Source of the DNA: Patellaria atrata CBS 101060
Lineage: Eukaryota
NCBI GenBank assembly: GCA_010093705.1
Contig: MU006096.1
Span: 1,138,004 to 1,202,003, forward strand
Length of the DNA: 64,000 nucleotides
Reading direction: 5' to 3'
Positions 7,733 through 35,683 of the stretch are shown one piece after another. The translations under genes and the position numbers were made by a program. Within the stretch, counting starts at the first letter, position 1. The number at the start of each line of letters is the position of its first letter. The notes below the pieces were generated by a model that made no database searches, was not told the origin of the DNA, and saw only the letters and a program-made list of their open reading frames with translations.

Positions 7733-10030
7733 ATGGGCAAGTGTAAGTACAGTCCGAGTCAGCTCTAATGACGACGCTCGTATTGCGAATTGAGGGGCAT
7801 TTTCTGACAGGACATGAACAGGGAGATATGGGGTCATATTGGACGCCGGGTCTTCGGTATGCAAACAAATAATCCTCTGTTTGAGCAATCTTTGAGAACG
7901 CGCGGCTGATTGTTGCAGGGCACCCGAGTCCACATATACAAATGGCTCAATAGCGCAAAAGCCCGCGCAAAAGCAGATGAGAAGGAATTGCATGGTCTAC
8001 CAGTCCTAAAAACAGACAAAGATTGGACGAAGAAAATACATCCTGGTATGATCCGTCGGAGTTAATTCCTGATCATCGTTAACCAAACCCTCTCAGGCGT
8101 GTCAACATTTGGTGATACCCCAGAGCTCGTTGGACCCGATCACCTCCAACCACTTTTCGAGCATGCGCTCGATGTTATTCCTAAAAGTCAAGTCGAAAAC
8201 ACCCCCATATTCCTGTTAGCGACAGCTGGAATGCGACTGTTGCCAGCTCCAAAACGAAAGGCACTTCTTGAAGAAATATGTGCCTACGCGCGCGAAAATA
8301 CAAGATTTCAGTTACCAGATTGTGATTTACATATACAAGTGATTCCTGGAGAGACCGAGGGTCTGTATGGTTGGATTGCTGCGAATTATTTGTTGGGTGG
8401 ATTCGACGCGCCAAAGGAGCATGATCATGGAAAAGGACATCACACGTACGGGTTTTTAGATATGGGTGGGGCATCAGCGCAAATTGCATTTTCCCCTAAT
8501 GCGACAGAGGCTAAGAAACATGCCAATGATCTAACGCTCCTTCGAATGCGGACAATCGATGGCAAACCTCTGGAATATCCGGTATTTGTGACTACCTGGC
8601 TCGGTTTTGGGATGCACGAAGCAAGGAGACGATATGTGGAAGCTTTACGGAATTCTACATCACCTGATACTATGGAACTCCCTGATCCTTGCCTACCTCG
8701 GGGACTCAATGTTACTACGGAAGGGAAACATATTACGAAGGGCTCCGACGAATGGAAGGGTCTCCAACCACATCTCCTAGGAACTGGTCTTTTTACTGAG
8801 TGCCTCGCTCAAACTTATCCATTGCTTGACAAAGACGCTCCTTGCCCCGATGCACCATGTCTACTTCACGGAGTGCACGTTCCGGCCATTGATTTCGATG
8901 TGAATCACTTTGTTGGCGTATCAGAATACTGGCACACGACTCACGAGATTTTCGAGGAGGGCCACAAGGACAGGGCGTATGACTTCCATACTTACCAGGA
9001 GCGCGTGAAAGGGTTCTGTACGCAAGACTGGTCCGATATCGAGGATGCAATTGAGAGTAAGAAATGGGGCAAGAAAGTGAACGAGGAAACAGCTCAAGAG
9101 GTCTGCTTTAAAGCATCATGGCTGATTAGAATGCTCCACGACGGCATTGGCGTACCACGAGTCGGCATCGAACATCTCAACACCGACCACAACGGCACCG
9201 CGGAACTCATCGACAACGCCAAAGAAAAAGGCTACCTGGACCCCTTCCAAGCCGTCAACGAAATCCACGACACCGAAGTCAGCTGGACCCTAGGCAAAAT
9301 GGTTCTCTACGCCTCCAGCCAGATCCCCCCAGCAGACAAAGCTCTCGCCGTCGGCTTCGGCAGCAACGGAGCAGGCATCCCCCCAGACTTCCAATACGCA
9401 GGCGGCAAATTCGACCCCAAGATCGACAACCTCACCGACGCCGCCGACGACGACGACGACGATTGGCACGATCACCTCTTCAGCGACTCCCCCCGCCGCA
9501 TCCCCGGCTTCCTCATGTTCGTCGTCATCGTGGCCGTCATCCTCTTCCTCCTCTGCGGCCGCGAGCGCAGGACAACTCTCATCGCAAAGGCCAAACGCTC
9601 TCTCGGCTTCAACCCCACCGGACCGAAGCGCAGGAAGGTCTTCACCGGCAAACTCTTCGGTCTGTCTTCCCAACCGCTCTACGAGCGCGTTCTAGAGGAC
9701 GCCGAGGCGGGCGAATTCGAACTCGCGGACGCGGACTCGGAGAACGAGCACTCGGACTCGTCGGACGGGACGCGCGTGGGTAGGACGTCCGGCTGGGCTA
9801 CACCCAGATTGAACGCGGCGTTTGATCGCAGCCCCGGGTATTTTGATGAGGATGCGTTGGGTGTGGGGGGATTGGTCCCCCCGAGTGTGGTGGGGAATGC
9901 GATGGAGAGGGGGGGCTTGTTGGCCAGGACGGATAGTAGGGAGAGGTTGGCTGCGCCGGTTAGGAGTAGGGCGGGGAGTCCGACGAGGAGGAGTCCGGTG
10001 CTTAAGAGTGTTAGGGAGTTCAGTGATTAG
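7733..10030 (+). CDS. YND1: Golgi apyrase / nucleoside phosphatase (GDA1/CD39 family)
   Basis: Spliced N-terminus MGKWRYGVILDAGSSGTRV; ACR motifs ATAGMRLL, GETEGLYGW, DMGGASAQ, SWTLG; C-terminal TM helix and cytosolic tail (Ynd1 topology). Confidence 0.93.
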
Positions 10031-13703: not shown

Positions 13704-15519
13704 AGTCTGCTTGGAGGTGTATATGCGGATCTATAGCCCTAGATTTGGTTGGAAAAGTTCGTATGTGTCACGCTGTTCTTGACGCTGATGCAAATTTCAA
13801 GCATGGCCCCTTTTACCTACGCGACAGGTCTAGAATGACTCCTGTTCAGGATGAGGTCGACGGTGTCATGATGGACTCTGCTGTATGTGCTCCTTTTCGT
13901 CTTTCGTCTGATTTCACCTCTAAGATGCGTCAGCGTCAAAGCACTGGTACCTGTGAGCAATCATCAAAAGGGGAAATTAGAAGGGATCCTGGGAATAGCA
14001 ACTGCTAAATTACCATCGACTGGTACTGGATTCTCAATTCAGATTTAGAGGAAAGCGCTTATAACTGTGCCGACTATAGTGTGATGTGTACCAAATAGAA
14101 AAGCTTGGAACGATTCAATAAGAATTCAAGATGCTTCTCTACTATAACTCTAAGATCTATAACGCATCTTTGCCTCAACTTCTCTATTCGTCGCTCGATA
14201 TCTTGGTAGTGTAACTTCTTTTGGCGCTTACGCTCACCTTTCAAGTACCTCGATCATCACTCATAGAGAACCAATGAGACTATGAGGATATTCTCGAGAG
14301 TATAAGTTCTGTTCACCCCTATTCCCCTGCCTAGTGCTCTGTTACAGATAGCTCATACTAACATTCTTCTTATCAATGGGCCGCACAAGAAATAATTAAT
14401 ATAGGGGGTTCAATGCTGACATCTCACGACGATATGGACCACTGTTTATACTCAGTATTTCGAGCTGTCTGACTATTTCCCTTCTAACGGTCCACTACCA
14501 ACGAAGTACTGTATATGATGATTATGAGCGTACCACGAACATAACTGACATCTACCCATCGAAGCCGTTCATTGAGTACCCCCCTACGGTACGCACCGTA
14601 CGGGAACTGTGAAAGGTTACCAAATGTTAATAACGGGAGTCAGTCACTCGATCCGATCCTTTAGTGGTCGTTTGCCGTGTGTCCCGGCATCAACACAGAT
14701 CTTCTTATCTGTTTCCCGTAAAGCGTTTCCGGTGAAGAAAAAGGAGACGGTTTGCAACGCCGCCGTCGGATTACCGGTATTTGGCTGCACAAAAGGCATG
14801 ATCCTGTTTAGACGGTTTTTATTCTATAATACCTCTATGAGAGGTGAAAGCTCGATAGTCCCTTTTCGGGTGCCATTAGGGCTGTTCCATACCCCCACGG
14901 ATCCTTTGGAGCCACTTTGAGTCTTCCAACCTCGAAAGCATGTGGCATGCAGGGGTAAACGACAACCTCAGCTCTCCACAAAATGCCATTTCTTTGCTTG
15001 AATTTTCTGGAGCCCGGATGAGAGGACTCGTAACGACGAATAATGCGTTTTTGGCATGCACAGTGACATGTCAGGTTTCGGATGCCTGTTTTGGACGCAC
15101 GAGACCAATTTCCGAATGTGAACGGCTTCTCCCTTCCCTTTGTCCCTAAGTGAACAACCCGACGCCTTCCTACCGGGACGGCGTATTTGTGGCTTCTTTA
15201 GCTGAACACTTCTTTCGAAAGCTGAAAAATTTCGAGACACCATGATAAGACAGCTATGGAGTCTATTATGGAGACATTGAGAGAATTCGGAATGGCCACG
15301 GAAGTTCTCCTTTTCAGTGAGCCTCAAAAAATTGGGTAAGAAAGAGGTATTGTAAAGTATGGTTAGGCTGGCGGAGTAGCCTCAGAAGTAGTTTTGATAC
15401 ACCACATGTGAGTTACGAAAGTCTACGAACCGCACATTTCCTACACTGTCATTCACTCTCTTCTCCACAGTCACTCTCCAGCCCTTTTCTTCTATTCAGT
15501 CACTCCTTCCAAAGGCACA

Positions 15520-16458
15520 ATGGCCTACTCCAAAACCCACAAACGCACCAAAGATCTCGGCGAGACCCCTCCCAAATTCTTCTGGTTTTGCGTCTTGACA
15601 GTCAGCTTCTACGTCTGGCTCATCTTCTCCACCGAGTTCCCCGAAGACCCACGATTCCCGCATGCTCAAAAACCATCGATGTCGAAATCCACCCGCAACG
15701 CCTACTGCACCTTCCTCTCCTCCCCCCTCCCCAGCAACGTCGAAGACACCGAGTTCCTCGCAACCCGCATTCTCGCCTACCAACTCCTCCACGACCCGAC
15801 CACCAAATCCCCCTCCAAACTCCCACTCGTCGTACTGGTAACCAAGGACGTGGAGCAGAGCAAACGCAACCTCCTCACCGCAGACGGGGCAACAGTGCTC
15901 GAAGTAACGCCCTTCCTAACCTCCTCCACCCCCTCCTCCGCCTCCGATCTGACCAAACTCCGCGCCTTCCAACTCACCCAGTTCGACAAAGTGTTGTACC
16001 TCGCGCCCTCCACCCTCCTGACGCAGCCGCTGGACGCCGTGTTCGCGGACCCCGCGACCGCGGAGTACGCGGCCCTGACGCCAGAGACGGAGCCCCCGCC
16101 CCAGTCTAACACCCAGGCGCCCTCGAGCTATGTTTTCGCTGCGTCGGCTACGACGGGGAACATGCTCGACCCCGGTTTCGTGGTGTTTAAACCGGCCGAG
16201 GGGTTGTTTAGACACTACATCGCGGTTCTGGGCGCGAGTGAGAGGGGCTTTGATACCGCGGAGGCGCTGTGGAGGGAGGTGCATGCGCAGAAGAGCAATA
16301 TGCCGTGGAATCGGCTTGCGGGGGAGTGGAATGGTGAGGTTTTGAAGGAGGGGGTTAGGAGTGTGAGGGTCGAGGGACGCGGGAGTGGGGAGGTGAGGGA
16401 GGTTTGGGGAAGAGTTAGAGGAAGGATGGAGGGGTATTGGATTAGGGCGGAAGAGTAA
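15520..16458 (+). CDS. Glycosyltransferase family 8-like type II membrane protein (GNT1/glycogenin-like), DXD motif lost
   Basis: N-terminal TM; NAYCTFL, ATRILAYQLLHDP, VLVTKDV, LTKLRAFQLTQFDKVLYL, YVFAA, GFVVFKP, MPW-RL-GEWN match fungal GT8 proteins. Confidence 0.85.
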   Translation: MAYSKTHKRTKDLGETPPKFFWFCVLTVSFYVWLIFSTEFPEDPRFPHAQKPSMSKSTRNAYCTFLSSPLPSNVEDTEFLATRILAYQLLHDPTTKSPSKLPLVVLVTKDVEQSKRNLLTADGATVLEVTPFLTSSTPSSASDLTKLRAFQLTQFDKVLYLAPSTLLTQPLDAVFADPATAEYAALTPETEPPPQSNTQAPSSYVFAASATTGNMLDPGFVVFKPAEGLFRHYIAVLGASERGFDTAEALWREVHAQKSNMPWNRLAGEWNGEVLKEGVRSVRVEGRGSGEVREVWGRVRGRMEGYWIRAEE

Positions 16459-16856
16459 TTTGATGCGGATGGTCAGTTTGTGTTTGGACTTTTGTGCTGT
16501 CAATTGGGTTGGTGACTTAGACGTAGAGGGAGTTTGGCTTCGTGCATTTTGGAGTTTCGGTACGGAGCATGGATTATTTGCCGGGAGATGTTACGAGCAT
16601 TTAATAAGATATTCCTGTAACTGTTGATTAGATGGACTACATAGGATAGCAGCTGTCCCAACTTTAGGTAAAGATATAGTGGACCGTATAGTACTGTACA
16701 ATTCTCATTATTCTATATCAAATCGAATATGGACTTATCTCAGTCTCGATATCCACCCGCTCTTCCTAGAACACCTCACACGCCAGTTCCCATTCTAAGA
16801 AAACACCCTAAGGTACATTTACACGGAAAGAGTGAACCAAAACCCCTGAGCTCACT

Positions 16857-18100
16857 TCACCTCCCCTTCTCCTCCCTCTCCTTCATAACGCTCTCCCACT
16901 CACTCTTTCCAATATCCTCTCCCACCTTCAACTCATCCTCCCCGGCCCTCAACCTCGCCCAAAACTCCTCAATCTCATCCGGATACCCAGTCTCATTATA
17001 CGGCACTTCGAGCCTCTCCGTCCTCTGATCCACAACATCCATCCACCTTCCCATCCGCTCCGGCCTCAACCCATCCCTATTACTCGCAAAATGGATCAAC
17101 AAGCTGCCCGGGCGGGCATGATTCGGCTTTAGCCTCGCGCCCTGCTCCTCGGGAGGCGGGTACGCGTTGAACCAGCGCTGGGGTACGATGACAGTGGAGC
17201 GCTTGTACCAGGGGACCTTGAGCATCTCCTCCATGGCGGACTGCTCGGTGTACTTGAGGTCGACGTCGGGGCGGAAGTGGTGGAAGGCGAGGGCGTGCGC
17301 GAACAGCTTGAGCGCCCAGTCGTTCACGCGCAGCATGAAGACGCCGTTGTTTAGACCGTGCCGGTCGTTAGTCGCGAGGAGGTAGATGTGGCTGAAGTCC
17401 GCTTGCGGCGGGATGAAGGCTTCGAGCGGCATCAGCGGGTTCGTTATCACTGTGTCTCGGTCGAACCACCTGGTTGGGTTAGATGAAGGGCCGCTGTGAG
17501 GGGAGGGGGGAGAGCTTACCACACCCATTGCAGTCGTTGATCTTCGGGTTTTGCGAGCTCCTCCGTGATGATGTGGAGGATGTAGGCGTGCTTTGACCAG
17601 AGGCCTGATAGGAGCCTTTCTCGTAACACGAACTCCGGGTATCCGTGGATTTGGTTGTGCAGGTTGTGCGATTCGATTGCTCGGTCGTAGCATGGATCAG
17701 GGCCTCCGAACGAGATGGTGATTTTTCCAACAACTGGTTGCGTGGTAGGGGTAGAGACTGCTGCTTCTGCTACTGACGAAGTTGTGGCTACTTCTATTAC
17801 CTCAGTGTCTGCGGACACAGGGGGTTCTTGATTTTCATGAACTGGCGTATTTTCGACCACAGGTTCGTCTTCAACCACCGGTTGCTGCAAATTGACTGGA
17901 ATCTCGGGTTTACTTTGATCTGGTATGATGATATCCGCACTATTGCTCTGCGCCCTTAAATATGTCCATAACGCGATCACTCCCATCAAGGCAACCGCCA
18001 AAACTCTGAGATATTTTCTCCTTCTCGTTCGACTGTATGACGCGCTCATGCCAGTATCAGGCGGGGTCAGAGTCGAAGAATAATATCGTGTACCGTGCAT
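16857..18100 (-). CDS. Glycosyltransferase family 34 (Gma12/Mnn10-like), type II membrane protein
   Basis: TM anchor and stem; RAIESH..HN..HGY, GLWSKHAYIL, spliced QWVWWFDRDTVITNP, GLNNGVF, EQSAM, VPQRWFNAY, LIHFA. Intron at about 17471-17519. Confidence 0.9.
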
Positions 18101-19370
18101 CGTGGGATAAAGATAAAATAATTATAAGGAGTGACACGAAGAGATGCAAAATGACCGAAAGGAACAGAAACACGTTGATAGACTAGAAACCCACCATGAC
18201 GAGAAAGATTATTGGGTTGCAAAATCACAAAGTTTTACTGCAGCAAATTCAGCAATAATGACATGTGCCGCCCCTGTCGGTCTCAGGGGAGAGAGGTTGA
18301 GGGAGTCTGCAAAAAGTCTAGACAGTCCTCCCACTTCGTCCACGAGCGGAAGTGGGACTAGAAAACCGAATACAGAGAGTTTGAAAACATAGAATTGATA
18401 CCGGAGGTTGTTTATTTCAATACGTTTATAGTTCTACTGTGGCGTTTCCGGCTATTTGAATTGGAGACGCGCTTGTACCTGATCTGACGCAGGGGTACAG
18501 GCTGGGTATGGTCGGATTTGGTTGTTGGTGCTTGTCTCACCTGTCAAGGCTTTCGAGCAGATTAACTTGAAGATTGTTCTGCCGATCTGACAGCAAGGGT
18601 CGAAACCAAGCTCTTTTTTACGCACGACCAGTTGCCCAAAAGAAATTCTTGCTGGGTTGTTCTGTAACTCTGGCGGGAGAAGCTGATGAGACACCTTACA
18701 GATTATTATCTTTCCTCTTTTTATTCTCAATAATGCGATGGCCCTGAAATATGATATGTTTCGATCTCGGTGAGGCTGACCAGTAATGTGATGTCGGATA
18801 AATCAGCGGGTGAGGAAAAAGGTAGGAGTTGCAAAACAGCCTCAAAGAAGTGAGTTTCGGAAGCTGTGCAAGACTGCAAGTATCTTCTATTTGCCCCTGC
18901 TGTGCCCCACTACTGATAAGCTAAGGCTTTGACTAATATCGAGGATGATGCCATGATCTTTATTAGAACATGCTAGTCCGTGTAGTAGTTCGTAGATCTT
19001 TCTGAGTCGAGCAAAAAGAAACTTGGGCATCTCTGCGGCTAGCCGATCAAAATCTCAGAAAAATATGTCGAGATTGTACCCCGTATTGCCGTCATATATT
19101 GCTTGCTACGCATTAAATAATCTACAGTAGCGACCTCCGACCCATATTAACGAGGAATGTACGATACTGTGCAGTACAGGATAGGTAGAAAGTTGAACTC
19201 CGAACCTAGCTATCACACAAATAGTGAGAGTCTAACCAACTCCTTGACTATGCCGACCCAAAGTTCCATCTAGTTGATCTAGCTGTCTTATATGCCATTC
19301 CAACGCCCATAAATTTTCAAGGATAAAAAGAAATAGTATAGAACCGAAGGATAAAATATTGCGGACTATC

Positions 19371-21896
19371 TCACCGTTCAAATCGGCTTGGCTCGGGTAA
19401 CAAGCCCCTGAATAGTCGCGTGATGGTTCTTTTCAACGATAGGAGTTCATCCCGATCGTCCGTGGTGACATCGTCATTCATGCACAGTTGGCCAACAGGC
19501 CGTGCATTGTTCGTCAAAAGTCTTTCTATCAACGTGTGCTCGACTTGTTCTGCGTCGGTGACCATGGTGAAGAGGGCATCCGGCTCCACAATGGCATACT
19601 GATAGCGCTTCAGTGCTTTGACGACTGTCTTTCTTTGCTCAGGGTGAGTTTTCTTCTTTGGAAGCATTGGATTGAGTCCCTTGACAACCCTATTTAGGAG
19701 CAATTTGATCAGACAGTCGCCACAGTGAGTATCTTGACGGGACAAGCGATCGAAGATAGTAGCACTTGAGAAGACAGGATTGGTATAATGCTGGTCCGAT
19801 AATGGACTCGAAAATCCAGGGGCAAGGCACTGGTTGACATCGAACTCGTAGCATTCGATATCCCTAATCATTGCAGGGCCATCCAAGGAGGTCCAAAGAG
19901 TGTCAATGTTGACTTTTGGGGGTTCCAAACCAGCTTCTGCCAGAGATCGGCCGACATAATAGAACATCCTTTTGCGGAATGTCGTCTGTCCTTCACGTTC
20001 TAGACCTTGCTCCAAATCGTGCATGACCGCTTGCCTCTCCGCCCATCCAAGGTTTCCGTCGCCGTTGGTGTCACTTCGAATCATGATGTAGCTCCAAAGT
20101 AGAGCCTCACGGTGACGTTCCATGGTGTAATGGAAGGTGACATACCAGGAGTAAAGCTGAAATCCAGTCTCCCCACGAAACCTTTGGCAAGCACTCCTTA
20201 ATGCCGGTCTGGGAAAGGTATTGATTGCTTCCCTCGTCACGCTGCGTGAAAGGGAATGCCCAAAATGCACCTGTCCTTTCCGTTTACGGTGACCAAAACG
20301 ACGATTGAGGAGCCAGGATGTGTAGATCAGGTACGGTTTCTCTCCGAAGCGATGAGCATCCACTTCCGAAGGGGGCTGTAGGGTATTGTACCCATTAGAC
20401 TTGAATCCCATCGTTGGACCAAATAGCGGTGAATAGATGTCGGACGCGGCGTGCGGTCTGCCGAGAAGCATGTCATCGGACAAAGCAAAAAGCTTGCTAC
20501 AATCAGCTTGATCGTCACTACAGTGTAATAAATCCACGTACCCTATCCGTATCAGACGGTGTGTTGAAGATTTGATTCTCAATGGTCAAAGAATTGAACG
20601 TAGGCAAACAGGCTTTCTCCTCTTCTCCAAAAAATTCCTCTTGAGACAGAATTTGGATTGCATGATCATCTTCTTTCAGCCATAAAGGTCTCTGCTTGTC
20701 GAAAGTTCCCACTCCTTCAACTTCAGTTTTGTCCACAGCGTTGACCAAAATCTGGATATTATTTCTGAATGATGGAGCATGCTGCTCTATGCTGCGGATT
20801 GAATATCGAAGCTCATCCCAGTCTCTATACCTATTGACACCATGCGATTTGATCCATTCCCCCTCTGGATCATTTAGGGAGGAGTTCAACTCATACGGGC
20901 GCATCGTATTCGCAAAATCTTCGTCAGAACCGTTGACCCCTAAAATTCCATGAGACAGATTATCATCACAAGGAAATGTAGCTTACAAGTGTATACAAAA
21001 TCAATTTTCGGTTCCGGCAGCTTTCCCCAAATCTTAGAGTCGTATCGAGCATGCGCTATCCAGTCGTCTTCCCAACCTTCATAAGTGACATCATTAACTG
21101 CATCCTCAAAAGGTATATGGATAAGGTCCGGCAAGCCATCTGCTTTTTCGTCGAGGGCAAGGTACGCTGCATAGCTGGGGAAAGAGTATGATTTCCCGGC
21201 TACTGGAATATTATGTACCTCTTGTATATCTTCCGGATCAGGTGACTTGTTTATGCTGTGTAAAGGCTGTTCCCATTTTCCATGGGTAATTTCATTTTCA
21301 TCCCCTTCCTCATCATTTTGACCAAGCTGGAGTGAAGGTTGTTGGCCACGTTCGTTCGGAACTAACTTGGGCCTCGTCTCTCCCGTATCGTCTAAATTCT
21401 CTTCTTTGACATGCTGATTCTGAAGCGGATTTTGTAATTGTGGATTTACTGGTTGCTCTATGTCCACGATTGGATCCAATTCTTTCTCCTTGACAAATTC
21501 CTTTTCTTCCGCTAACTCTTTCTCATCCGCCGTCTCTTTCTGTGATATCAATGACTCTTGCCTATCTACATTTGGTGCCGAATTTTCGTTTAGATTGGTG
21601 TTCTCAGACACCTGGCCTGCGGGAGTTGATGCGTCGTGATCAGACGATTTACCGTGGTAGACACCAGGGTGCCATTGTTCGTCAGATGTGTGTTCGTTAT
21701 ATAAAGATTGTACAGTATTGAATGAATTTTTAGTAGAATGATGGAAGGGAAAACTTTTATGAAGCCACCAAACGCAGAGGATGATAAAAGCGCATATAAG
21801 ATAAAACGTCCTTCGTTTACGAGGTAAGGTTCTTGCGGCAGAAGAGAAGTTGGATTTCTTCTGCCATTGTACTTCACTCCTGGGGAGCTCATACAT
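19371..21896 (-). CDS. Stealth-family sugar-1-phosphate transferase (Cryptococcus Xpt1-like), type II membrane protein, 3 exons
   Basis: Stealth CR1 IDFVYTWVNGSD (across the intron at about 20940-20986); CR2 NRYRDWDELRYSIRSI, PTFNSLTIE, LSDDM; CR3 RFRG; CR4 LCMNDD; EF-hand-like DTNGDGNLGWAE. Confidence 0.92.
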
Positions 21897-24249
21897 CGTG
21901 ACTGAAAATCAATAAAGAATGAAATGGTCTTCAAGGACCTGAAGAAGACAATGAAAATAATAGATGTTGCTTGATGATCCTGAATTTAGTAAGTCATAGT
22001 TAGTAAGGAGCGGTAGGTGATCGTGTGCCCTCCTAGGAGGGGTCTTGCGCAAAAAAAAAAAAAAAAGATGAACCCAGGGAGGGGGTCCGAATAGCCAAGC
22101 AATTTCAGGACAGGCCCATCATACCAGAAAATATGAAGACTAGGCTGCTGAGTGGAAGATAGAGAATTCGGAAAGGGGTAACAAAGAAACCCAAGCAACT
22201 CCGCGATTCTACCACATGGACGAAGCTGGGGCCTATCCTGCCGTTGAGGCACTCATATTAGCAGCCATGGCGCAGACTGGACACAACTTGAAGTGTTGTG
22301 TATCTTGGGTACCATAGATTCGAACAGAAGTCCCCATGGCGTTGCTGAACATGATGGCCAAAGCGGTGGTGGGAGGATTAGGCTCCGAAGTTCAAGAGCC
22401 ATTAAACCGGTAATGAACTGGTAATGTACGTGAAAATCTCACTACATCCCTTTTGCAAAAATTACGAACTTATCGTTACACTTACCCCTGACAAGAAAAG
22501 TAGAAGACGGGGTTTTCCGGCGGAGACTCCGATGCTCGGCAAGGATTGATTCGTGGATGACTGTTGCTCGTGTGTCCGTAAGCCAAATGTGGATTAGGCT
22601 AAGCTGTGGCTTGTTAAAACTTTACCTCAACGTCCAGACTCCTGTTATGCCCTGTAGCTAAAGCCAACGATGGAACCAGGCCCAACCAGCAAAAAGTACA
22701 GAGCGAGGACTGCGTGGCAGCTCTAACCCGTTTGTACAAAATCATTCCACAACACTGATACAAATTCCAAAAGAACATGTTTGAAATTCCGATTTCAGCG
22801 AGTATCCCCATCGACTCCGTTGGTAGGTGCACCGATACTTTCAGTACAACTGATCGGCTAGGAAACGGGAAGCACACCCTGCTTCAATTACAGTAACATA
22901 CGGGCGGGCTTCCGCATCCGTAAGAATCTGATAGGTAGAATTCCGTCAATTCTATTCTAAGGCTCACAATCCCTTTCTGGTCGTATTTATTGATGCTTCC
23001 ATCAGATGCTTATCCAGATTACTGAGTGGCTGCTGTTGGCTCAGGACAGCTCAAACGCATAATTGGAAGATACTTTGCGATCAACATTTTTAACGACAGT
23101 ATGTTGTCAGTTTTTCGCGCCTACAATGTGATGTTACTTTGAACATACAGTACGGTACACTTCATGGCCCGCTCCGTGGTGTCTAATTTGTGAACTGTAG
23201 TGCACAAAGCGCCTAAGGTTCCACACGGAGATCAATCTTTGAACCACATACCAAGCTCAAATTGACGCCGTAGGTCGCCAAGGATCGACCTTTGGGTTCA
23301 TCTGTCATCGCAAGATTAAGATGAGCAATCGTAAGGATGCGTGGAGGTGCAACGACGGCGTGAAGCTAAGAGAACGTTGTCCAACTTGCATCCAGAATTG
23401 CGCCCCTACATTCGGAACATATTTTATACGTTGAAACTGACAGCTGATGACTTTGCAGACTTTATCTGAGCTTAATTGTGCAAACAATGCTTTCCAACGA
23501 GATTCAAAATATTGACTGCTCTTATGGACTATCAAAAAGGCGTAATATTTGCATAGCCCTAGAAGAACTGTTGAATGCAGTGGTACCCCTCTGTCCTATC
23601 AATAATAATTGACGTATCATTTTTGTGGATACTTTGTTCTTCGTCTTGTCTGCGCATCTCCCGTACTGTCACGTTTCTTTCGCGTACCTGCATGAGGGCT
23701 TATGCCTGTTCAGGAGAAGTGCTTTCTTTGCAAAACTGATCTTCGCGCCGGGACTACTTCAGCTCGCCAAATGTTAAGCCCTATCCCGCTCAATAAGGAA
23801 GAACGTCTTGTGTCTTTATGAATAGTGGCTATCCACTAACTTTCTGACTGCCCACACTCTTAACCTAATCGAGCACTATCATCAAACTTGCTCTCACAGC
23901 GGATCAGTACCCATGTCATTCGATTTACACCGGCAATATTGACATGGATTAAGTGAGCCACAGTACCAACGCAGAGATTGCTATCATGCCTCCGAGTCAA
24001 GTTCGGTGTGATAATCATCCTTTTAGGAATAACATTTTGGCAAGGACGTGGGCGATCATACACCTTGTCATCCCGCTGAGCCTCAAGGCAATAATGAAGA
24101 GTCTTTTAAAGAGGACTGTCATCCCTCATCTACTAAGTTTTTTCTCCTTGTTACTCAGTTCACTCGCTTACTTGGAGTCAACCTTTGTTTGCAATTGCAA
24201 CTTAATTCATCCTTATTAGGATAGTCACTCGTTTTTCAGCTTTGCAAAC

Positions 24250-25620
24250 ATGATTTCTTCATCCTCAGTACTAATAATCTCCGGGCTTGCTTCCCTCGCG
24301 TCTGCATCAAAGGCATACACAACTTACACACCTTGTGCGGATTGCCCTGCCGAGTACAGTCCTACCCCAATTACTGTCACGAAGCAATATCAACCAATCA
24401 CCACTTGCTCCGCAAGCTCGAGTGAGATCAGCTATGGCGTATATACAACTGAGTACCCGTGCTCTACCTACGCCTACGTCTCAACCGTCATCCCCTGCGC
24501 TGGACCAAGCGGCCCAACTTACACCACAGTGACGGACACCGCTGCGTATATCACTGTATCTCACTATGAGACTACCGCAACATACACATCTACCCCAACT
24601 GCGTATCCTTACCCAACTGGATACACAAATGCTACCACCACTTCCGCTTATCCCACCTACACCAAGGTGACAACCTACGACTACAAAATCCCATATCACA
24701 AGCTCGGAAAGTACGCTATTCCAGGTTATCCCGGCAGCGGTCTCGATCATGCCGCCAAACCCAAGCCCGATGGATCTTACCACCAGTATGTTGAGGTTGT
24801 TAAGTGTGTGGATGATGTGTGTGAGGAGTATGTCGACAGCTGGGATTACACCCCAGAGACAAAGACTTCCACATATGTTGTTTCCTGGTCGACTGCAACC
24901 TATGCCCCAACCAACGGTGTCTACACTTTCAAGGCTCCTTTCCACTCCAAGCCTTACACCACCAGCCTTGATAACTGCCCCAAGACTTACACTGCTCATG
25001 CGGCTGCTACAAAGACCAAGACAATCACTTTGAGCACCACCGTTACTGAGGTCAAGGCTTATCACACCAGCGCCTATGCTTCAACTGATGGCGTCTACAC
25101 CTACACCCTCTCCGGCAGCGTTCCTTACACCACCAGTGTCAACCACTGCCCCAAGACAATCCCCATTGATTACACCATCACCAAGACTTACACCAAGCCT
25201 GCCATCACCTCGTGCAAGAAGACCAGCACATCTACTCCTTATGGTCATCATACCACTCTCAAGACTTACACTAAGCCTCACGACACCACTTATCCCGCTT
25301 ATGAGACCACTCCTCCGGCGTACGAGACTACCCCTTACCCGTACGAGACTGAGACTCCTTATCCATCGGAGACTCCTTACCCAACATACCCATCATCCAC
25401 CACTTCTCCTTACTACCCGGATCCTTCCTCCGATCCGGACTATGATCCGTATGAGGTTACGTATGAGAAGCGTGATATGGCAGATCTCGTTCCCCGCGCG
25501 ACCGCTTTCGCTCGTCGCAACGCTGACCAGAAGGTGCGCCGCACCGGTGGTCTCCTTCGTCGTGCTGACGTGGAGAATGTCGACAAGAAGTTGAAGCGCA
25601 AGTCTGTCATCAAGGTTTAA
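24250..25620 (+). CDS. Secreted Thr/Tyr/Pro-rich repeat protein (putative cell-surface/matrix glycoprotein)
   Basis: Intronless 456-codon ORF with strong codon bias, signal peptide MISSSSVLIISGLASLASA, two internal Cys-containing repeats, YET(T)P(Y) repeats and dibasic KR/RR sites near the C-terminus. Confidence 0.85.
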   Translation: MISSSSVLIISGLASLASASKAYTTYTPCADCPAEYSPTPITVTKQYQPITTCSASSSEISYGVYTTEYPCSTYAYVSTVIPCAGPSGPTYTTVTDTAAYITVSHYETTATYTSTPTAYPYPTGYTNATTTSAYPTYTKVTTYDYKIPYHKLGKYAIPGYPGSGLDHAAKPKPDGSYHQYVEVVKCVDDVCEEYVDSWDYTPETKTSTYVVSWSTATYAPTNGVYTFKAPFHSKPYTTSLDNCPKTYTAHAAATKTKTITLSTTVTEVKAYHTSAYASTDGVYTYTLSGSVPYTTSVNHCPKTIPIDYTITKTYTKPAITSCKKTSTSTPYGHHTTLKTYTKPHDTTYPAYETTPPAYETTPYPYETETPYPSETPYPTYPSSTTSPYYPDPSSDPDYDPYEVTYEKRDMADLVPRATAFARRNADQKVRRTGGLLRRADVENVDKKLKRKSVIKV

Positions 25621-27191
25621 TGGCTTTTTGGGTTAGATTTTTCTTCTCTGCACACTTTTCTTTCTCTGGAGATGGTAGCTTGGTGATATTGATACCAATA
25701 GAGCATGGTTCACTGGGACAGGTATATCTTCGCTGGGAATAATGTCGGAGTTCGCACGAGCATATAATGTACGTAGTACAATCACAACATGTTCATGCTA
25801 TGAATGAGCATAGTAACGACCTTTCAACTTTCCTTTCTACATTCATTTGCCATGAATGCAATTGTCATTTCCCGTGACCTCCATCTGCCGACTGAATATA
25901 CTCAGCCTTGCTGGGAATTCTTCATATTCATGTCTTACTGTGAACTTAGATTCTCAATGTGACTCCTTGAGCAGATCTATTCTGCTACAGGACGCAATTA
26001 TTAAGCAGCGGTTGCTCTATTATATTCTTATTTTGATAATTGGGTTCCTAACCATTTCTTATCTGATTCTCTTACAGCATCCACAACTTCATTGTAATCA
26101 CAGTATCCGATGACAAGTACATCTTATTTTAGATCCTGGTTGACTTAAAGCTCACATCTAGAGAAAAACTAATGAAAAACCATCTCGATCTTACGAGGGC
26201 CGAATCTCCGTCGGGGAGTTCTCGACCTGGTTATCGGAGCCATCTAATTCAGCTGAACGCGGGAGCGAAGAGGAATTATCGAAAATTACCTATACGGGTA
26301 ATTGAGCACGATGTATTTTGCCTAGCAGCAGTGGAGGTCGTAAATAAGATTGTTGTGCAATCTTATGCGCGCTTGTGTTCCTGCAGTAGCTTTGCACACT
26401 TTGTACATACGTTGCATTAAGCTTTGCAGGCGTATCCTAGCAATTTGGTTGGTGTCCGTTTTGGTGCAAGAGCTAAGCCACCAGCAAAACCCCTTTTGAT
26501 ATCTGTGCAATTTTGACATGGACTCGTGGAGACACCCGCTCTATCAGTAGTGTCTGTGCTGAAGGCATCATTTTCCCTTTATCTTAGGGCACAAGCTTTG
26601 GAATGAACTAGTGTTACTGTGGGTAAACCCTGCTGTCGAATGAACTTTATCTCTCAGCATGTCAGAAATCTCAGGAGTCGGGTCGGATCCGCTACAGGGA
26701 CTCATCAGGGAACATGTCTTCTATGCGTAATTCAGAGACGAGAGATTTCTCTTTACCGGTGTATTCGAAGACCGGATGATGCTTGAATTAAATCAATCTT
26801 GGTAAGCTAAATATCCTCGACACATCTTTGACAAGAATCACACCCACTTTTGACCCCCCCTTGTGGCTTACTATCTCAGGCGGCCGTCCACATCCAGCTC
26901 GGAAAATTGCCAGTTTTGGAAGAAGATCTCGTGAGGCTAAGGGGTATGGCTGTAATATATTTTAGACTTGTATCACCCCTCCGTAACACTGTCTAGCGAA
27001 TCTAGCTTCTCTATCCAAGGGTTCCTTGGTCCCTGGTCTAGACTAAACCTCCCCGTTCCATATCGATAACAGATCCTCATCTCACAAATAATTCTACATC
27101 TTTTCCCGAGTCGTTTTACAATACTTGTACGGATCATTCCTTGTGGGCTTTTTCTCTTCAGTCATTCCTTTCTTATTTGAACACTCTCTTC

Positions 27192-28659
27192 ATGATGGGC
27201 CATGCGATCATGAGACAGAATACTTTCATGCGTGGAGGTGGTGCTGCATTTCTTTTCGTGCTCATATTCCTATGGATTCTCACCTTTAAGAGACCGTCGA
27301 TACCTGCTGTTCCGGGCAGTTGGCAACCTTCGAGTGCTCAATTAGAGGTTGCTCAGTCTCCCGTTGTTCAAGATGGAATTAAGAGAGCTTCTCCCCCATC
27401 AAATCTGGGATCGTATCCCAAGATCACCTTGACGGAGCCGGCAGATGATAATATTAGGGATATTCAAAATTCCACACTTGGCGTACGTATTGCAAAAAGA
27501 GAATTGACAAGATCGTGCAGTCTGACACCGTTGTACAGTTTCAGAAGATATTCATTCTATCCATGCCAAATCGAAGTGACAAAAGAGACGCACTCACATT
27601 ATCGGCCTACCTAACCGGTTTGGATGTCGAGTTCATCGACGGCGTGAATGGCTCCCTTGTGTCCGAAAAGGCGTACCCACAGGTAACGTAACGTCCAACT
27701 ACCGTTTCAAACCCCAAGCCTAACAACTCCACCAGCCCTGGAAACAAGACGAGCCCGCAGGCACCATCGGCTGCTGGCGTGGCCACATGGAGATTTACCA
27801 GAAAATGGTCCGCGAGAAGATCTCCACCGCCATGATCATGGAAGACGACGTGGACTGGGACGTCATGATCAAAGCGCAAATGACCGAGTTCGCGCGAGGG
27901 ACCCGTTACCTGCAAAAATCCGTCTCGCCCACGCACTCCCCCTACGGCGACGGCTGGGACATCCTCTCAACCGGCCACTGCGGCATCTGGAACAAAGTCC
28001 GCGAAGACCAAGACTACTGGGTCTCGGAGAACGATCCCACAGTTGTCGTTCCCATCCAGCGCGAATGGTGGCGCAAACCAAACCTCACTCCCCCAGCGCT
28101 GGCCGGGGACCGCTCCCGCGTCGTCATGAGCCCGTACCAACTGTCATGTCTGGCCTCGTACGCGGTCTCACTTCGCGGCGCCGCGCGCATCATCTACGAC
28201 CAGGCCATCCTGCCCAACGCGCAGGGCATCGACTCTGGCCTCGGCGCCATCTGCAAGCGCCACGAGTACGGCTTCAACTCCTGTCTCGCGGCGTACCCCA
28301 TGATCACGGGCGTGCATCGCCCTGCCGGCGATATGACCAGAGAGTCGGACCGTAAGACCCTGCGTACCGGCCGCGTCAGGGAGAAGGCCCAGTCGGATAA
28401 CCTCATGTTTCCTGTTCGTATGAATTTGGGCTCATTGCTGCTGGGCGACACGGTGGTTAAAGCGCAGTGGCCCGATCACGCTATGGTTCAGGAGCTTGAT
28501 ACGAGGACTTATGAGCTTCCGAGGGGGAGGGGCGTGTTTGTTAGGGGGGATGAGTATATTAAGGATGTCCCTGAGGAGGAACAGAAGGTCTTGACTGATA
28601 CAGCTCAAGTGGAGAAGAAGGCGGTAACTGAGACCGAGGAGAAGAAGGCGGAGGAGTAA
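27192..28659 (+). CDS. Glycosyltransferase family 25, type II membrane protein, 3 exons
   Basis: IQNSTLG|FQKIFILSMPNRSDKRD, FIDGVNG, GTIGCWRGHM, IMEDDVDWD, SPYGDGWDILSTGHC, YAVSLRGA. Introns at about 27483-27538 and 27683-27735. Confidence 0.9.
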
Positions 28660-29177
28660 CAGGATCCCATGTAGTTTTTCTCTTTTTAGGGTAGCTTGAC
28701 TTCGTGTATCTATTTTTGGGGTTGTGGGCAATTTGGTGACTCTTGTTTTGAGTACTGTTTCTGGAAAGATGGCTACTGGAGTATCCGTGGAGTAGGGGAA
28801 TTAAATCGATCAATTTGATTATGTTCTTTCAAATTGAGACTGTCGCCAGTTTAGGAGACCCTTATGATTGTTGATTCTAAGTTACTATACTTATCAATTC
28901 GACCCCTTTCTAGTCTTTAGCCTGTCCGTGCAATTCACTTCGAATTCTTATTCGATTCAAAGTGCACAGTAAGTTGACAAGGGAGCAAATATAGATATGC
29001 AGAGAATTCGGAATATATATCAACGACGAGTAGTCTTAAGATTATACTATACAAGCTGATCCGTCAAGAGTCTATCAAAACAAACCTAACGCCGCCCTCC
29101 TAAACGCCATCCCTTAAAACCCCACCGTTCTACATCAATCTAAACACCCCCCCCCCCCCCCTCTCCCTTACTTCCCT

Positions 29178-30530
29178 TCAATTCGGCCTCTCAAACGGCA
29201 AATACTCCTCCTTCGCAACCCACACGCCCCTCCCCCTCGGATAAACCCCGCTCGTCAAATTCCACTCCTCAAGCATACTTTCCCCCGGCCACTGCGTCAA
29301 CACCGATCCCTCGCCCCCCAGAATCCTCTCCAGATTCAGTCTCGTGCTAAACACGATCTGGCCCGTGACCGCCTTCTCCCTGAAACCCCCCGCGCGATCC
29401 TCACGATCCGAGTCTTTAGCCGTCGTCCCCGCAGCCCTATGCGTCCCAATAAGCGTCGGATACGGCGCGATACAGCGAAACCCCAGGGGCCGATCATTAC
29501 ATATTTTCTGCAGCGCGCGATCGGAGACGGCGGCCTCGCCGCTGATGGCCTGGTGGTAGAGCAGCCGTCGCGCCCCGCGCAGCGAGAGCGCGTACCCGAA
29601 CATGCAGAGCCCGCGCACGGGCTCGTACACGATGCGGTTGTAAGTCCCGGCGAGTGGCGCGGGGGTCATGTTGGGTTGCCGTCGGGGGTAGCCCCATTGG
29701 CTTTGTGGGACGGCGGTTGGGTCGGACGGGATGAGGTAGTAGGGCTGGTCGCGGTCTTCGCGGTTGCGGGTGCCGCAGTGGCCGAGCCAGAGGAGGTCCC
29801 AGTCGGTACCGTAGGGGGAGTCGGGCGTCGTGGCTGGGAGGGTCTGGTGCGAGGTTGTTGGGGAGAGGGATTCGATGTGTAAGGTGGCCCGGGCGAATTC
29901 GGCCATTTGGGCTTTGAGGGTTACGTCCCAGTCGGCGTCGTCTTCCATTATGAGGGCGCTGGGGATCTGTTCGCGGACGATTCTGGATGGGGGGTTAGTG
30001 GAGGGAGGGGCGAGAGGGGGGTGGAGGTACTTTTGGATTGCGTTCATGTGGGCGCGCCAGCAGCCTAGGGTGTGGTTGTCTTCGCCTTCTGGCCAGCCCT
30101 TAGTGAGGATGTTAGATTCGGATCTTTAAAGGTGTACGTAGATATGTGCTCTTACAATTGGGATAGCTTTTTCCGGTACTAAAGCGCCGTTGACGCCATC
30201 AAGGAATTCGATTTTGAGGCCAGTAACTGATGCTGCGATAGACAACGCGTCTCTCTTATCCGTCCGGTCGGCCATGGAATTGACAAAGATTCTTGAAAAC
30301 TATAGACCATATTAAATTGTTGAACGTTTTCTGGTATGCGGTAGAGGACATACACCCAAAGTCTCATTTTGCGTTCTCCATAATTCATCCTCCCCATTCT
30401 GTCCCTGAACCCCCCGCGACCTCCCAGAACTCGATGACAACGGCGAAGAAAACAGATTAGTGAATGTCAAATATGCGAATATAAGGAATGTGACCGCCAG
30501 AATTGGCGTAGAAGTGCCTCGCGGCAGCAT
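29178..30530 (-). CDS. Glycosyltransferase family 25 paralogue, multi-exon
   Basis: TQNETLG|F...SMADRTDKRD, LGCWRAHMNA, IMEDDADWD, SPYGTDWDLLWLGHC, YALSLRGA; N-terminal TM anchor. Confidence 0.9.
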
Positions 30531-32259
30531 TTTGACAATGACCTCAAATATGAACAGAGAAAAAGTTCAACAGCAATACTACGAGAAAATGGCCAAAAGA
30601 GGGGGGTCCTAGGTGCTCCTGGGCCCGGTGCGGGCAAACAAGAGGCCTAAACTAGGGGTCGATACCGCCAAAATGGAACCATCTGATCCCCCGATTTGAT
30701 TTGCCTCATGGGTAGGGGCACGGCAAAATGAGAGCTGAGATCAAAGGCACGCGAGAGACTACGGTATGCGGTGTGCAGTCATAGTATGGAATAGGGGTTT
30801 CGATTAGACCAAAATAGCGAAATCTGAATAGCGAGGTATCATTACACTAAAGGTGTCCCGTCTACACCCAGTTTCCGGTATCGATCGCGGCAGTATCTAA
30901 ACCTCTTATCCGAATCAGGGGTAAATGCTAAAACCTGTTAGCTGTTGACTAACGCAGCCCTAACGCGAATCCCAGACCACACTTACCCTTCCTCTGGGAA
31001 ATGCCGGATCTCTTCTTTTTCCCTCACGATGTCTCTTTCGTGGCGTTCCCATGGCTTGCTGAGAACGTTAATAAGTCTACGCGCCGCGTCGTCCTTTTTC
31101 CTCTGTTTACAAATTTCAGATCGTGACAGCCTCGTGGACCTGTGCTGCGCTACTTGCTCTTCTCATCTGTCACACTGCTTCCGGCGGCAACGAATTTGAC
31201 ACAGCCCGCGCGCCAGGTTGAATGGTTCTCTTATTAATTTTCTCCTTGCTCTTATCTGGGTAGCTAGGTTGCGGAGCATTCCTCGACTCAAGCTTCAGGC
31301 CTCAGCGTCCCGATGGTATCGTACTTTGCTGTGAGCTGGGCCGATGCTGGGTCGATTCAATATTAAAAAGAAGCCAGGACATCCATGATCGTAGAAAAGC
31401 GTACGGAGTAGAGTTAAGGCGATAAGACTCCATGATAAGCACTGTGGTCCGTACTCGTATTATAGAAAAAGAGACTTCCTTTTGACTGCTGATTGAATAT
31501 GAGCTTATGAATCTCCACCTCGGAGCCTCCATGGTTGTGTCGATTTCTTTTCAACTACGCTATTCTATTTTCAGCTTGCGTCGGTGATATCGATCAATTT
31601 CATTCTCTGTTCAACTCTCAAGACATGAATCTATAGACGTACGGTAGAATGAGTGATGATTATTATTCATCGGTCATGGCGAGCGTCTCTTTGTAATATG
31701 CTCATATCAGAAAGAGACGAACATAGTGATATCCAGCCAACATTTCGAACTGTATCAAACAAGTCAAACCTTTGTTTACTAGTGTGACGTAAAACATCTT
31801 GTAGGCAGTTATAGGCACGTGTCAGGTGAAGACTTCAGGAGCATCATTATTCACTGTTTATTTCACCTCTACTTCCTCTTCACTTACAAGTCTCAACTAC
31901 GCTTTTCTGAAATAACAATGCACTTACTCGAACACAAACCAAAAATCCCTTGCAGTTTCGAAAACTCTGAAACCTGATTGGTTTACTAAATTCTGTGAAG
32001 ACCCTTCGTTGACTTGTGTTGTGTTTTGACATCGTCCGCGTGCACTTAAATCCTACCCGTCGACATGAATTTAAACCTCGAACTGAGGTCGCAATCTTAA
32101 CCTTCCACCTCTTCTTTCGACATTTCTTCAGAAGTGTCCTTACACCTTATCAATCTTGCTAACAATCCAACGCGTTGCGGAGAATCTTGACAGTACGACA
32201 ACTCACAAATAACGAAACTAGTCCCTAACTTATCGAAACTCTTCGAGAGTCTAACCCAT

Positions 32260-34626: not shown

Positions 34627-35683
34627 ATGGCACGGAGATCGATTTTCGAGATTCCAAAACCCAAGGTAACCTCCCTCTTGCCTGCCCCGAGACAAAGCTT
34701 CTGAGACATATGTCCCTTCTATATCACGTATTGGATACATTACACAGAGATTAACATACATATTATAGACATTCCTCTACCTCATGTCCCTCCGAACCGG
34801 TACTGAACTCATAACCCTAACCGTCCTTATCAATAAAATCTCCGGCTTCTATGGCATCCTCGCGCTTTTCACAGGCTTCCACCTCTCCTGGCTGCAACTA
34901 TCCATGTACATATACTCCATCCTAGCCGTCGTACTGACAGCATATCTCGCGCCACACATCCGGAAAGCATCGCCACTACAATGTCTCGCGCTCGCCTGGT
35001 TCTACACCATCGACTCCATCATCAACGCCATCTTCACCGCCGTCTTCGGCGTCGCATGGTTCGTCATCCTTGCCCAGCACGCCGGGGAGAGGGACCCAAC
35101 CCCAGGCGGTAAGACTATCGACGACACCGCCGGCTTCACGAGCCCCAAATACAACGTCAGCAAGGTAGACGTGGTAGCGACACCCGCGGACGCAACCGTA
35201 CCCGCTCAGGACGCCGTGGCCATCGGATCCGGCGGACCGGCCGGCATCGGCAACGCCGTCTTCCAGAGCGGCAGCATGATGAGCATCACCGTCATCAGCG
35301 CCCTCTGGTGCCTGCGCGTCTACTTCATCTTCGTCATGATGGCGTATGCGCGCCTCGTGCTGCGCCAGCATATCACGCAGACTGCTGCCTCGAACTACCA
35401 GCTCCATACCGGCAGCACGTCGGAATCGGTGGCGGAAAACCCGTTCGCGGAGGACAAGGAAGAGGGCAAGGGATGGCAGGGCAATCTGGGTAGGGCTATG
35501 GTCAACGTCGGCAAGAAGTACTGGCTCGGTAATGATGAGGATGGCGAGTGGATGCGGAACGTTGGAGGTAGATTTCGCAAGAGCACTGAGCCGGTAGGTG
35601 TGCTAGAGCGCGAAAGGAGGAGGAGAAGCGGTACCGGGCCGCCGGCTCCTCACAAGATGCCTCAGTTCGTTGAACAGAGGTGA
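34627..35683 (+). CDS. KEI1: Inositol phosphorylceramide synthase regulatory subunit Kei1 (DUF1753)
   Basis: Spliced ...PKPK|TFLYLMSLRTGTELI, NKISGFYGILALFTG, WLQLSMYIYS, LRVYF; C-terminal ERERRRRSGTGPP. Intron at about 34666-34768. Confidence 0.88.

Follow-up and report, generated by a model that had tools for sequence, protein, structure and literature searches.

Do adjacent genes for Golgi glycosylation enzymes in a fungal genome work toward one common product, and if so, on which carrier is this product built? This question is raised by a block of six adjacent genes (positions 15520-30530) within a window of 64,000 nucleotides, the whole stretch of DNA analyzed here, from Patellaria atrata CBS 101060, a wood-dwelling member of the Dothideomycetes, order Patellariales. 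From one end to the other, the block encodes a GT8-like protein, a GT34 (Gma12/Mnn10) glycosyltransferase, a Stealth protein, a secreted protein rich in Thr, Tyr, and Pro (hereafter the central protein), and two GT25 glycosyltransferases, GT25a and GT25b. As judged from their sequences, it is highly probable that the six genes form a functional cluster. Our best explanation, to which we give an even chance, is a conserved Golgi glycosylation cluster whose enzymes act on one glycan, most likely on the co-encoded secreted protein; taken by itself, the role of the central protein as glycan acceptor is a tentative assignment, somewhat short of even. The shared product, its chemistry, and the central protein as its acceptor are what we infer from the gene set; the cluster is well supported as a hypothesis but not established as a pathway. 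The recurrence of GT25, GT34, Stealth, and the secreted protein as neighbors in other fungi provides a testable idea of which enzymes cooperate, and on what.

Enzymes and secreted protein of the block

Gene models were derived from the list of open reading frames (ORFs), three-frame translations, and inspection of splice junctions. The DNA is fungal, with short GT..AG introns (48-56 nt), and the six reading frames are all open with intact splice sites. An earlier note on this DNA had described six consecutive genes of defined order and strand with no housekeeping gene among them. All of them are present as described, and between them there is neither an ORF of at least 110 amino acids with a Pfam match nor, within the block, a transfer RNA (tRNA) or a match to an Rfam family; housekeeping genes occupy both flanks. 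The type II topology claimed for all five enzymes was found as well: by hydropathy, each has a single N-terminal hydrophobic segment of ~20 residues with a net positive charge ahead of it (anchor residues 18-38 in the GT8-like protein, 30-49 in GT34, and 31-51 in Stealth). As for the allegedly wider spacers, the coding-to-coding distances inside the block (398, 1270, 2353, 1571, and 518 bp) compare with flank gaps of ~200-1000 bp, which leaves a weak tendency in few, ORF-based values.

The GT34 protein matches PF05637 from exon 2 alone (E-value 1.8e-9, 38.1 bits against a cut-off of 23). Its D-R-D at residues 197-199, embedded in 'WWFDRDTV', may be the catalytic D-x-D of that family. Searched against solved structures, exon 2 found no match at an E-value of at most 1.

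The Stealth protein consists of its anchor, a long low-complexity stem, and the catalytic regions. CR2 (PF11380) is matched at an E-value of 2.6e-15 (56.9 bits against a cut-off of 39.4), whereas CR3 (PF17102, 20.5 bits against 24.2) and CR4 (PF17103, 23.9 against 27.4) stay below their cut-offs and stand in the expected order on exon 3. A CR1-like motif, IDFVYTW, is present as well, the spliced model reading KIDFVYTWVNGSD over the junction of exons 1 and 2; PMC1285062 gives the CR1 motif as 'IDVVYTF or very similar'. The best solved-structure match of exon 3 is the catalytic domain of GNPTAB (PDB 7s6n and others) at an E-value of 6.7e-7. Stealth enzymes transfer sugar phosphates, and bacterial members make capsular polymers, according to PMC1285062. 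In PMC9388126, the reaction is described as transfer of hexose-1-phosphate from a nucleotide sugar with conserved catalytic Asp, Arg, and His, the acceptor of GNPT being mannose of protein glycans.

The identity of the two GT25 genes became apparent at the family level. Their single exons match PF01755 at E-values of 0.026 and 0.097 (14.8 and 13 bits against a cut-off of 24). The NCBI protein P0009 from Patellaria atrata CBS 101060 (452 amino acids) is 100% identical to GT25a exon 3, has the length of our GT25a model, and is annotated with PF01755 under the name 'glycosyltransferase family 25 protein'. With a profile of 21 GT25 sequences, procollagen galactosyltransferase 1 (PDB 9u7j, 9evj, and 8zgc) was matched at an E-value of 2.9e-15, the E-D-D region aligning with 'VFEDDLRF' of COLGALT1. 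Within the motif E-D-D-x-D-W, residues E181, D182, D183, D185, and W186 are invariant across all 21 sequences, including GT25a and GT25b. The two are paralogs with 44% identity (GT25b against P0009), and both keep EDD.DW. GT25 enzymes are inverting and thus form beta linkages, while GT34 enzymes are retaining and form alpha linkages (CAZy).

The GT8-like protein alone had no Pfam match and reached solved structures at E-values of 0.19-0.6. Eight homologs were found at 28-36% identity; two of these relatives are named nucleotide-diphospho-sugar transferase or GT8, and one carries PF01501. A profile of the protein and its 8 relatives matched 19 glycogenin sequences at 5e-14 to 2e-11 and Skp1 alpha-galactosyltransferase at 2e-8. 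The match to glycogenins thus supports the assignment to the GT8-like fold family made in the earlier note, but the catalytic residues that would go with it are lost. At the D-x-D site the protein reads 'YLAPSTL', whereas all seven full relatives and a GT8-like gene found beside GT25 in another fungal locus (L018, see below) have (L/I/M)-D-x-D, and glycogenin has M-D-A-D; there is no D-x-D anywhere in the protein. Where the relatives share S(L/V/F)H(E/M/A/G)K(W/Y/F)W (for instance 'SLHEKWW'), it reads 'SVRVEG', with loss of a conserved His that we take, from glycogenin, to be the third metal ligand. A segment of ~20 residues is also missing in comparison to the relatives. Many family-specific residues and the open frame are retained. 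Because the D-x-D and the conserved His are both lost, the protein is probably a catalytically dead pseudoenzyme, or its gene is on its way out. The database model of this gene (P0001, 259 amino acids) starts at Met54 and lacks the anchor; the anchor region (window 15520-15678) is present in the ORF of 312 amino acids and in the homologs.

The central protein contains 86 Thr, 54 Tyr, 45 Pro, and 44 Ser, together 50% of its 456 residues, and has a signal-like N-terminus. It gave no Pfam match even at an E-value of 10 in a copy of the database without the PF28457 model, and a Pfam scan of six proteins, in which this model was likewise absent, gave no match for the four family members included. 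A profile of the central protein and two homologs, in turn, collected 89 relatives, 70 of them with precomputed PF28457.1 annotation; the database entry of the central protein itself has no PF28457 annotation. From the conserved blocks in an alignment of 39 family sequences, it is clearly recognizable as a divergent PF28457-family homolog. The named genera of this family presumably all belong to the Pleosporales, Lojkania being the one that was checked. The family is widespread in this order, which comprises many plant-associated fungi.

Members of the family share a signal peptide, followed by Thr/Tyr/Val-rich blocks and a Ser/Thr/Pro region of very variable length. Toward the C-terminus an acidic P-D-P-S-S-D-Y-E-E-P leads to a near-invariant G-Y-V-K-R-G-G and a basic tail ending in K-R-V-I-L-V. 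Of these features, PDPSSD, KR, and the basic C-terminal tail (window 25450-25620) are retained in the central protein, and the KR site suggests a Kex2-type cleavage that would release a conserved C-terminal peptide. Structure prediction by AlphaFold, using the alignment, assigned a predicted local distance difference test (pLDDT) of 85-95 to residues 20-205 of the central protein and below 50 to the remainder; in the homolog from another fungal locus (L008, see below), an all-beta region spans ~30-340 (pLDDT 75-94) and the C-terminal 80 residues are disordered. According to these models, most Thr and Tyr of the family would reside in a folded all-beta domain and not in a mucin-like region. As most of these residues are placed in beta strands, the short disordered Ser/Thr/Pro stalk is the likely O-glycosylation site. 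The earlier description as a Thr-rich secreted glycan target needs amending in that the Thr-rich part itself is predicted to be mainly folded. Part of the stalk is encoded by a 21-bp tandem repeat (3.3 copies, 25280-25349) giving heptads of the A-Y-E-T-T-P-P type.

A comparison of two AlphaFold models of the family with the PDB by Foldseek gave no match at an E-value of at most 0.001. VIA-align against 48,161 chains yielded best Z scores of 4.0 and 3.1 for the two models and hence no convincing solved relative, and a protein atlas contained no match scoring at least 0.9 (its own model of the central protein has a pLDDT of 0.40). This absence of a fold match does not make the predicted domain a new fold.

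Linkage in other fungi

Metagenome contigs were scanned with a profile of the GT25 alignment and 10 kb on each side of a hit were considered, resulting in 78 loci. Those were searched with the six window proteins (E-value thresholds 1e-5 and 1e-3) and with a hidden Markov model (HMM) of the central protein. A partner family was present beside GT25 in 9 of the 78 loci at the stricter and in 10 at the relaxed threshold, representing 6 distinct loci after merging of near-identical ones; in 8 loci a GT34 homolog adjoins GT25. The most complete arrangements were found in L008 and L030, parts of two unrelated metagenome contigs of 138,816 and 39,918 bp, respectively. Both host GT25 (+), GT34 (-), Stealth (+), and a homolog of the central protein (+) within 9 kb, in an order different from that of the window. 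Their Stealth homologs are 64-65% identical to the window Stealth, and in the window as well as in L008 and L030 the gene for the central protein or its homolog lies directly beside Stealth.

The remaining linked loci show further combinations. Locus L005 (1-21349) comprises three GT25 genes, one GT34 gene, two O-FucT-like genes, and a membrane acyltransferase of the Acyl_transf_3 family, with a HET gene coming next; neither Stealth nor a PF28457-type protein occurs within that stretch. A divergent GT34-GT25 pair is found in L032/L038, and in L018 a GT25 gene neighbors a GT8-like gene with D-S-D and the His kept. In L065, one ORF of 588 amino acids (6378-8141, +) encodes GT25 in its first part and GT34 in its second (PF05637 at 1.5e-14). 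The GT25 N-terminus and the anchor of this fusion lie on an upstream exon (gene 5752-8141), and there is no anchor between the domains. Located 3 kb downstream of the fusion, a gene cut by the contig end (11170-13128, +) encodes a secreted protein with 26% Ser, 14% Thr, and PAN/apple domains, which may be another mucin-like neighbor of these enzymes or a coincidence.

Outside of the metagenome set, Lojkania enalia (Pleosporales) encodes a GT25 (KAF2264236.1) and a PF28457 protein (KAF2264238.1) on the same scaffold of 356,746 bp, which suggests that they are one gene apart, provided that accession order follows gene order. Co-occurrence of cluster families across fungi, which the earlier note proposed to check, is seen in six distinct metagenome loci and in Lojkania enalia, but is not universal (3 of 18 two-sided loci).

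The Pfam families flanking L008 and L030 are unlike those of the window, and among all window ORFs of at least 100 amino acids only those inside the six genes match any locus. Taken together, this indicates that the linkage does not simply reflect common descent of a larger region. A quick maximum-likelihood tree of GT25 placed all 10 linked rows in one half of 43 rows; the other half, of 27 rows, contains no linked row. GT25a falls into a well-supported clade of 11 rows, 5 of which are linked, and groups with the 10001 copy of L004/L005, while the nearest neighbors of GT25b are L005 316-1413 and its duplicate L013. As GT25a and GT25b pair with different L005 copies, two organisms at the least have maintained both paralogs side by side.

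The coordinates of the six genes and of further features of the window are compiled in Table 1. Three genes outside the block are Golgi- or glycan-related (GDA1/CD39, Kei1, and the epimerase) and are cut off from it by housekeeping genes; relatives of these three were found in none of the 78 metagenome loci.

Table 1. Coordinates of genes and motif copies in the 64-kb window of Patellaria atrata.
Feature	Position	Strand	Exons, length, or remark
GT8-like type II membrane protein	15520-16458	+	one exon; 312 aa
GT34 (Gma12/Mnn10), type II	16857-18100	-	exons 17520-18100, 16857-17469; 397 aa
Stealth, type II	19371-21896	-	exons 20987-21896, 20542-20939, 19371-20492; 809 aa
Secreted Thr/Tyr/Pro-rich protein (central protein)	24250-25620	+	456 aa
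GT25a, type II	27192-28659	+	exons 27192-27482, 27539-27682, 27736-28659; 452 aa
GT25b, type II	29178-30530	-	exons 30354-30530, 30156-30299, 29178-30098; 413 aa
AGGGGTA	14951, 18491, 22174, 22483, 23584, 26940, 30917		also 16430, 17747, 25329, 53232, 58171
GDA1/CD39 nucleoside phosphatase	8066-10027	+	outside the block
Inositolphosphorylceramide synthase subunit Kei1	34769-35680	+	outside the block
NAD-dependent sugar epimerase/dehydratase	60518-61641	-	outside the block
Upstream flank			Sad1/UNC, Arc1p-like, major facilitator superfamily transporter, GDA1/CD39 nucleoside phosphatase, GPN-type ATP-binding protein, WD40 protein
Downstream flank			RING protein, Kei1, tRNA intron endonuclease, Hikeshi, NUDIX, Rpb8, PAXNEB, Nipped-B, others

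The 7-mer AGGGGTA occurs 250-670 bp upstream of the start codon of all six cluster genes. The window holds 12 copies, ten of which lie inside 14951-30923, the mean after shuffling being 6.1. In 12 out of 2000 random sets of six 1-kb pieces, a 7-mer was shared by all six with at most 5 copies elsewhere. The 7-mer is not conserved in L008. AGGGG is the core of the fungal stress-response element. As a shared promoter motif AGGGGTA was found post hoc and serves as a lead only. Two matching sequencing runs were considered as expression evidence and rejected, since they cover introns and spacers evenly and contain no splice joints, and thus represent DNA. Further downstream in the window, CAGCGGTA at 50587-50714 (-) is present in 4 copies with an exact spacing of 30 bp (50617-50714) and in a near copy 30 bp before; this spacing points to a 10-residue tandem repeat in a large ORF (48571-51093) with no Pfam match.

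Competing explanations

For the favored explanation, the following course of events can be envisaged. The central protein would enter the secretory pathway via its signal peptide, and its disordered Ser/Thr/Pro stalk would be O-mannosylated by the general machinery. The Stealth enzyme, of type II topology, would then in the Golgi transfer a sugar-1-phosphate from a uridine diphosphate (UDP)-sugar onto this O-glycan, creating a phosphodiester, and the two non-redundant GT25 paralogs would extend the glycan by beta linkages and GT34 by alpha linkages. The GT8-like protein, its metal ligands lost, would be a non-catalytic partner at most. Prior to secretion, a Kex2-type cleavage at KR would remove the basic C-terminal tail. 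The four intact enzymes would in this way yield one Golgi-made glycan with a phosphodiester as well as beta and alpha linkages. One phosphodiester glycan is proposed because of the Stealth chemistry, the fungal and Dictyostelium precedents, and the combination of inverting GT25 with retaining GT34. The central protein would be a candidate acceptor for glycoproteomics, and should the glycan end up as a coat of cells or spores, hosts and competitors would meet in it a new component of the fungal surface. The role in adhesion or host evasion that the earlier note envisaged for such a coat is speculative. The GT25-GT34 fusion and the apparently dead GT8-like member can be regarded as natural experiments on enzyme cooperation.

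A number of observations weigh against this explanation. Adjacency is the sole tie between the enzymes and the central protein, and the latter is not a classical mucin, as its predicted folded beta domain holds most of the Thr and Tyr. Among loci covered for 4 kb or more on both flanks, 3 of 18 have a partner gene; with 4 kb or more on one flank, the figure is 4 of 38, and most of the unlinked GT25 loci are paralogs with 30-36% identity. The sister of the fusion locus (L020, 10 kb on both sides) has no partner and contains genes of nonribosomal peptide synthetase-like, ATP-grasp, and ATP-binding cassette type instead. Within the GT25a clade, no partner was found in L001/L031 on the upstream flank or in L014 on the downstream flank, in each case the only side covered. 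Homologs of the central protein were detected in 2 of the 78 loci, L008 and L030, by the HMM on all ORFs. The named relatives closest to GT25a are Leotiomycetes, among which the profile search found no clear member of the central-protein family. The fusion of L065 stands alone: in the best 150 of 1957 matches, no protein other than its own (P0166) matches both halves. Finally, GenBank accession order, as used for Lojkania enalia, is a mere proxy for gene order, and the GT25 tree is a quick version.

A second explanation, which we regard as possible but doubtful, keeps the cooperation of the enzymes and places their glycan elsewhere, namely in a wall or extracellular polysaccharide, in general glycoprotein decoration, or in the head group of a glycosyl-inositolphosphoceramide. 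As part of this same doubtful scenario, the central protein would be a co-regulated wall or matrix component, a glycan binder, or an accessory subunit of Stealth, the gene of which it directly adjoins in the window, L008, and L030. Bacterial Stealth enzymes producing capsular polymers (PMC1285062) would fit this view, as would the large, confidently predicted beta domain, which is consistent with a function of its own. GT25 and GT34 stand together with no central protein in L005, L032/L038, and L065, and L005 adds Acyl_transf_3 and two O-FucT-like genes in the manner of polysaccharide loci; however, several of the loci lacking the central protein are short or one-sided, so that its absence there may be only apparent. 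Against a glycan located elsewhere, fungal O-glycans usually sit on disordered Ser/Thr/Pro stretches of the kind that this family has preserved as its stalk, and the fungal Stealth enzyme Xpt1 is, by the title of the report on it, linked to protein O-glycan synthesis. The lack of any lectin or carbohydrate-binding fold match above Z 3.1-4.0 is uninformative either way.

A more far-reaching proposal, which we consider a long shot in all its parts, is a protein-anchored phosphoglycan polymer as the fungal counterpart of matriglycan or the protist phosphoglycans. GT25 and GT34 would then act as a two-activity co-polymerase for an alternating beta/alpha disaccharide repeat, attached by a Stealth-made sugar-1-phosphate bridge to the stalk O-mannose of a dedicated, lineage-specific carrier, with the dead GT8-like protein as scaffold. 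If true, it would be without precedent among fungi as a carrier-plus-polymerase cassette for a protein-bound glycan polymer.

It is improbable that ancestral gene order and tandem duplication have passively left these genes side by side, with no shared pathway behind it. One adjacency can indeed be explained by duplication, GT25a and GT25b being paralogs, and many GT25 relatives have no partner nearby. Nevertheless, four or more distinct arrangements of these families are found, and the genes around them have nothing in common with the window flanks. In addition, a single ORF of L065 joins GT25 and GT34, the window and L005 have each preserved the pair of GT25 paralogs along with GT34, and five Golgi glycan enzymes in six consecutive genes between housekeeping flanks are not expected by chance. 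Equally unlikely is a decaying cluster in Patellaria atrata, its pathway partly or wholly non-functional and intact versions surviving in the Pleosporales: the GT8-like gene has lost D-x-D and His, and the central protein has diverged further than any other member of the family (27-36% identity), lacks the conserved segment 'PGVYHH..ETVTITK..YTCSY', and is modeled with a pLDDT below 50 in its C-terminal half where the L008 homolog is confident to residue 340, yet the six frames and their splice sites are intact, GT34, Stealth, and both GT25 enzymes keep motifs and anchors, and signal peptide, N-terminal domain (pLDDT 85-95), PDPSSD, KR, and basic tail are all still present in the central protein.

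Comparison with known systems

The available part of PMC10282164 contains no mention of 'GT25', and in a Neurospora preprint gt25-1 is merely a hit of a genome-wide association study. Full-text literature searches retrieved no description of this gene combination and no biochemical function for a fungal GT25 or for the Stealth enzymes of filamentous fungi, in agreement with the earlier impression of an undescribed composition. Fungal glycan gene clusters as such are known, and the Aspergillus galactosaminogalactan (GAG) cluster is the main precedent in filamentous fungi. In that cluster, co-located genes serve the production of one secreted or surface glycan, as is proposed for the Patellaria block. 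The families differ, as the GAG cluster is composed of a large membrane synthase, a deacetylase, two hydrolases, and an epimerase and includes no Stealth, GT25, GT34, or co-encoded carrier, whereas the Patellaria enzymes are small type II Golgi proteins.

For the Stealth step, Xpt1 of Cryptococcus neoformans is a close functional parallel. It is reportedly, going by the title of the 2011 report by Reilly et al., a xylosylphosphotransferase of protein O-glycan synthesis, and the addition of sugar-1-phosphate to protein O-glycans in a fungal Golgi is the reaction proposed for the window Stealth; the likeness drawn here is one of proposed function. We know of no linkage of XPT1 to GT25, GT34, or a substrate gene. 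The Dictyostelium spore coat protein SP96 is said, again by a title, to carry Fuc(alpha1-3)GlcNAc-alpha-1-P-Ser phosphoglycosylation. It resembles our proposal in that a sugar-1-phosphate on a Ser/Thr-rich secreted structural protein is then extended by another sugar, and differs from it in organism and protein, in the phosphate being directly on Ser, and in the lack of a gene cluster.

LARGE combines, in one enzyme, a retaining and an inverting transferase, as does the GT25-GT34 fusion of L065. Its polymer, matriglycan, hangs from a phosphorylated O-mannose glycan on the mucin-like region of alpha-dystroglycan. LARGE consists of GT8 and GT49 and belongs to an animal system, and a polymer in the Patellaria case is hypothetical.

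A passage headed 'Stealth and Protists' in PMC1285062 relates to Dictyostelium phosphoglycosylation. With GNPTAB the window Stealth shares the catalytic core, and GNPTAB likewise acts on mannose of protein-bound glycans. It differs by large inserted modules, a gamma subunit, and its task of tagging lysosomal enzymes on N-glycans, while the window Stealth has only anchor, low-complexity stem, and catalytic regions. Among solved structures, COLGALT1, finally, comes closest to the GT25 pair; it glycosylates a protein side chain directly. The likeness is confined to the catalytic core, to which the fungal GT25s add a long C-terminal extension with invariant residues of its own.

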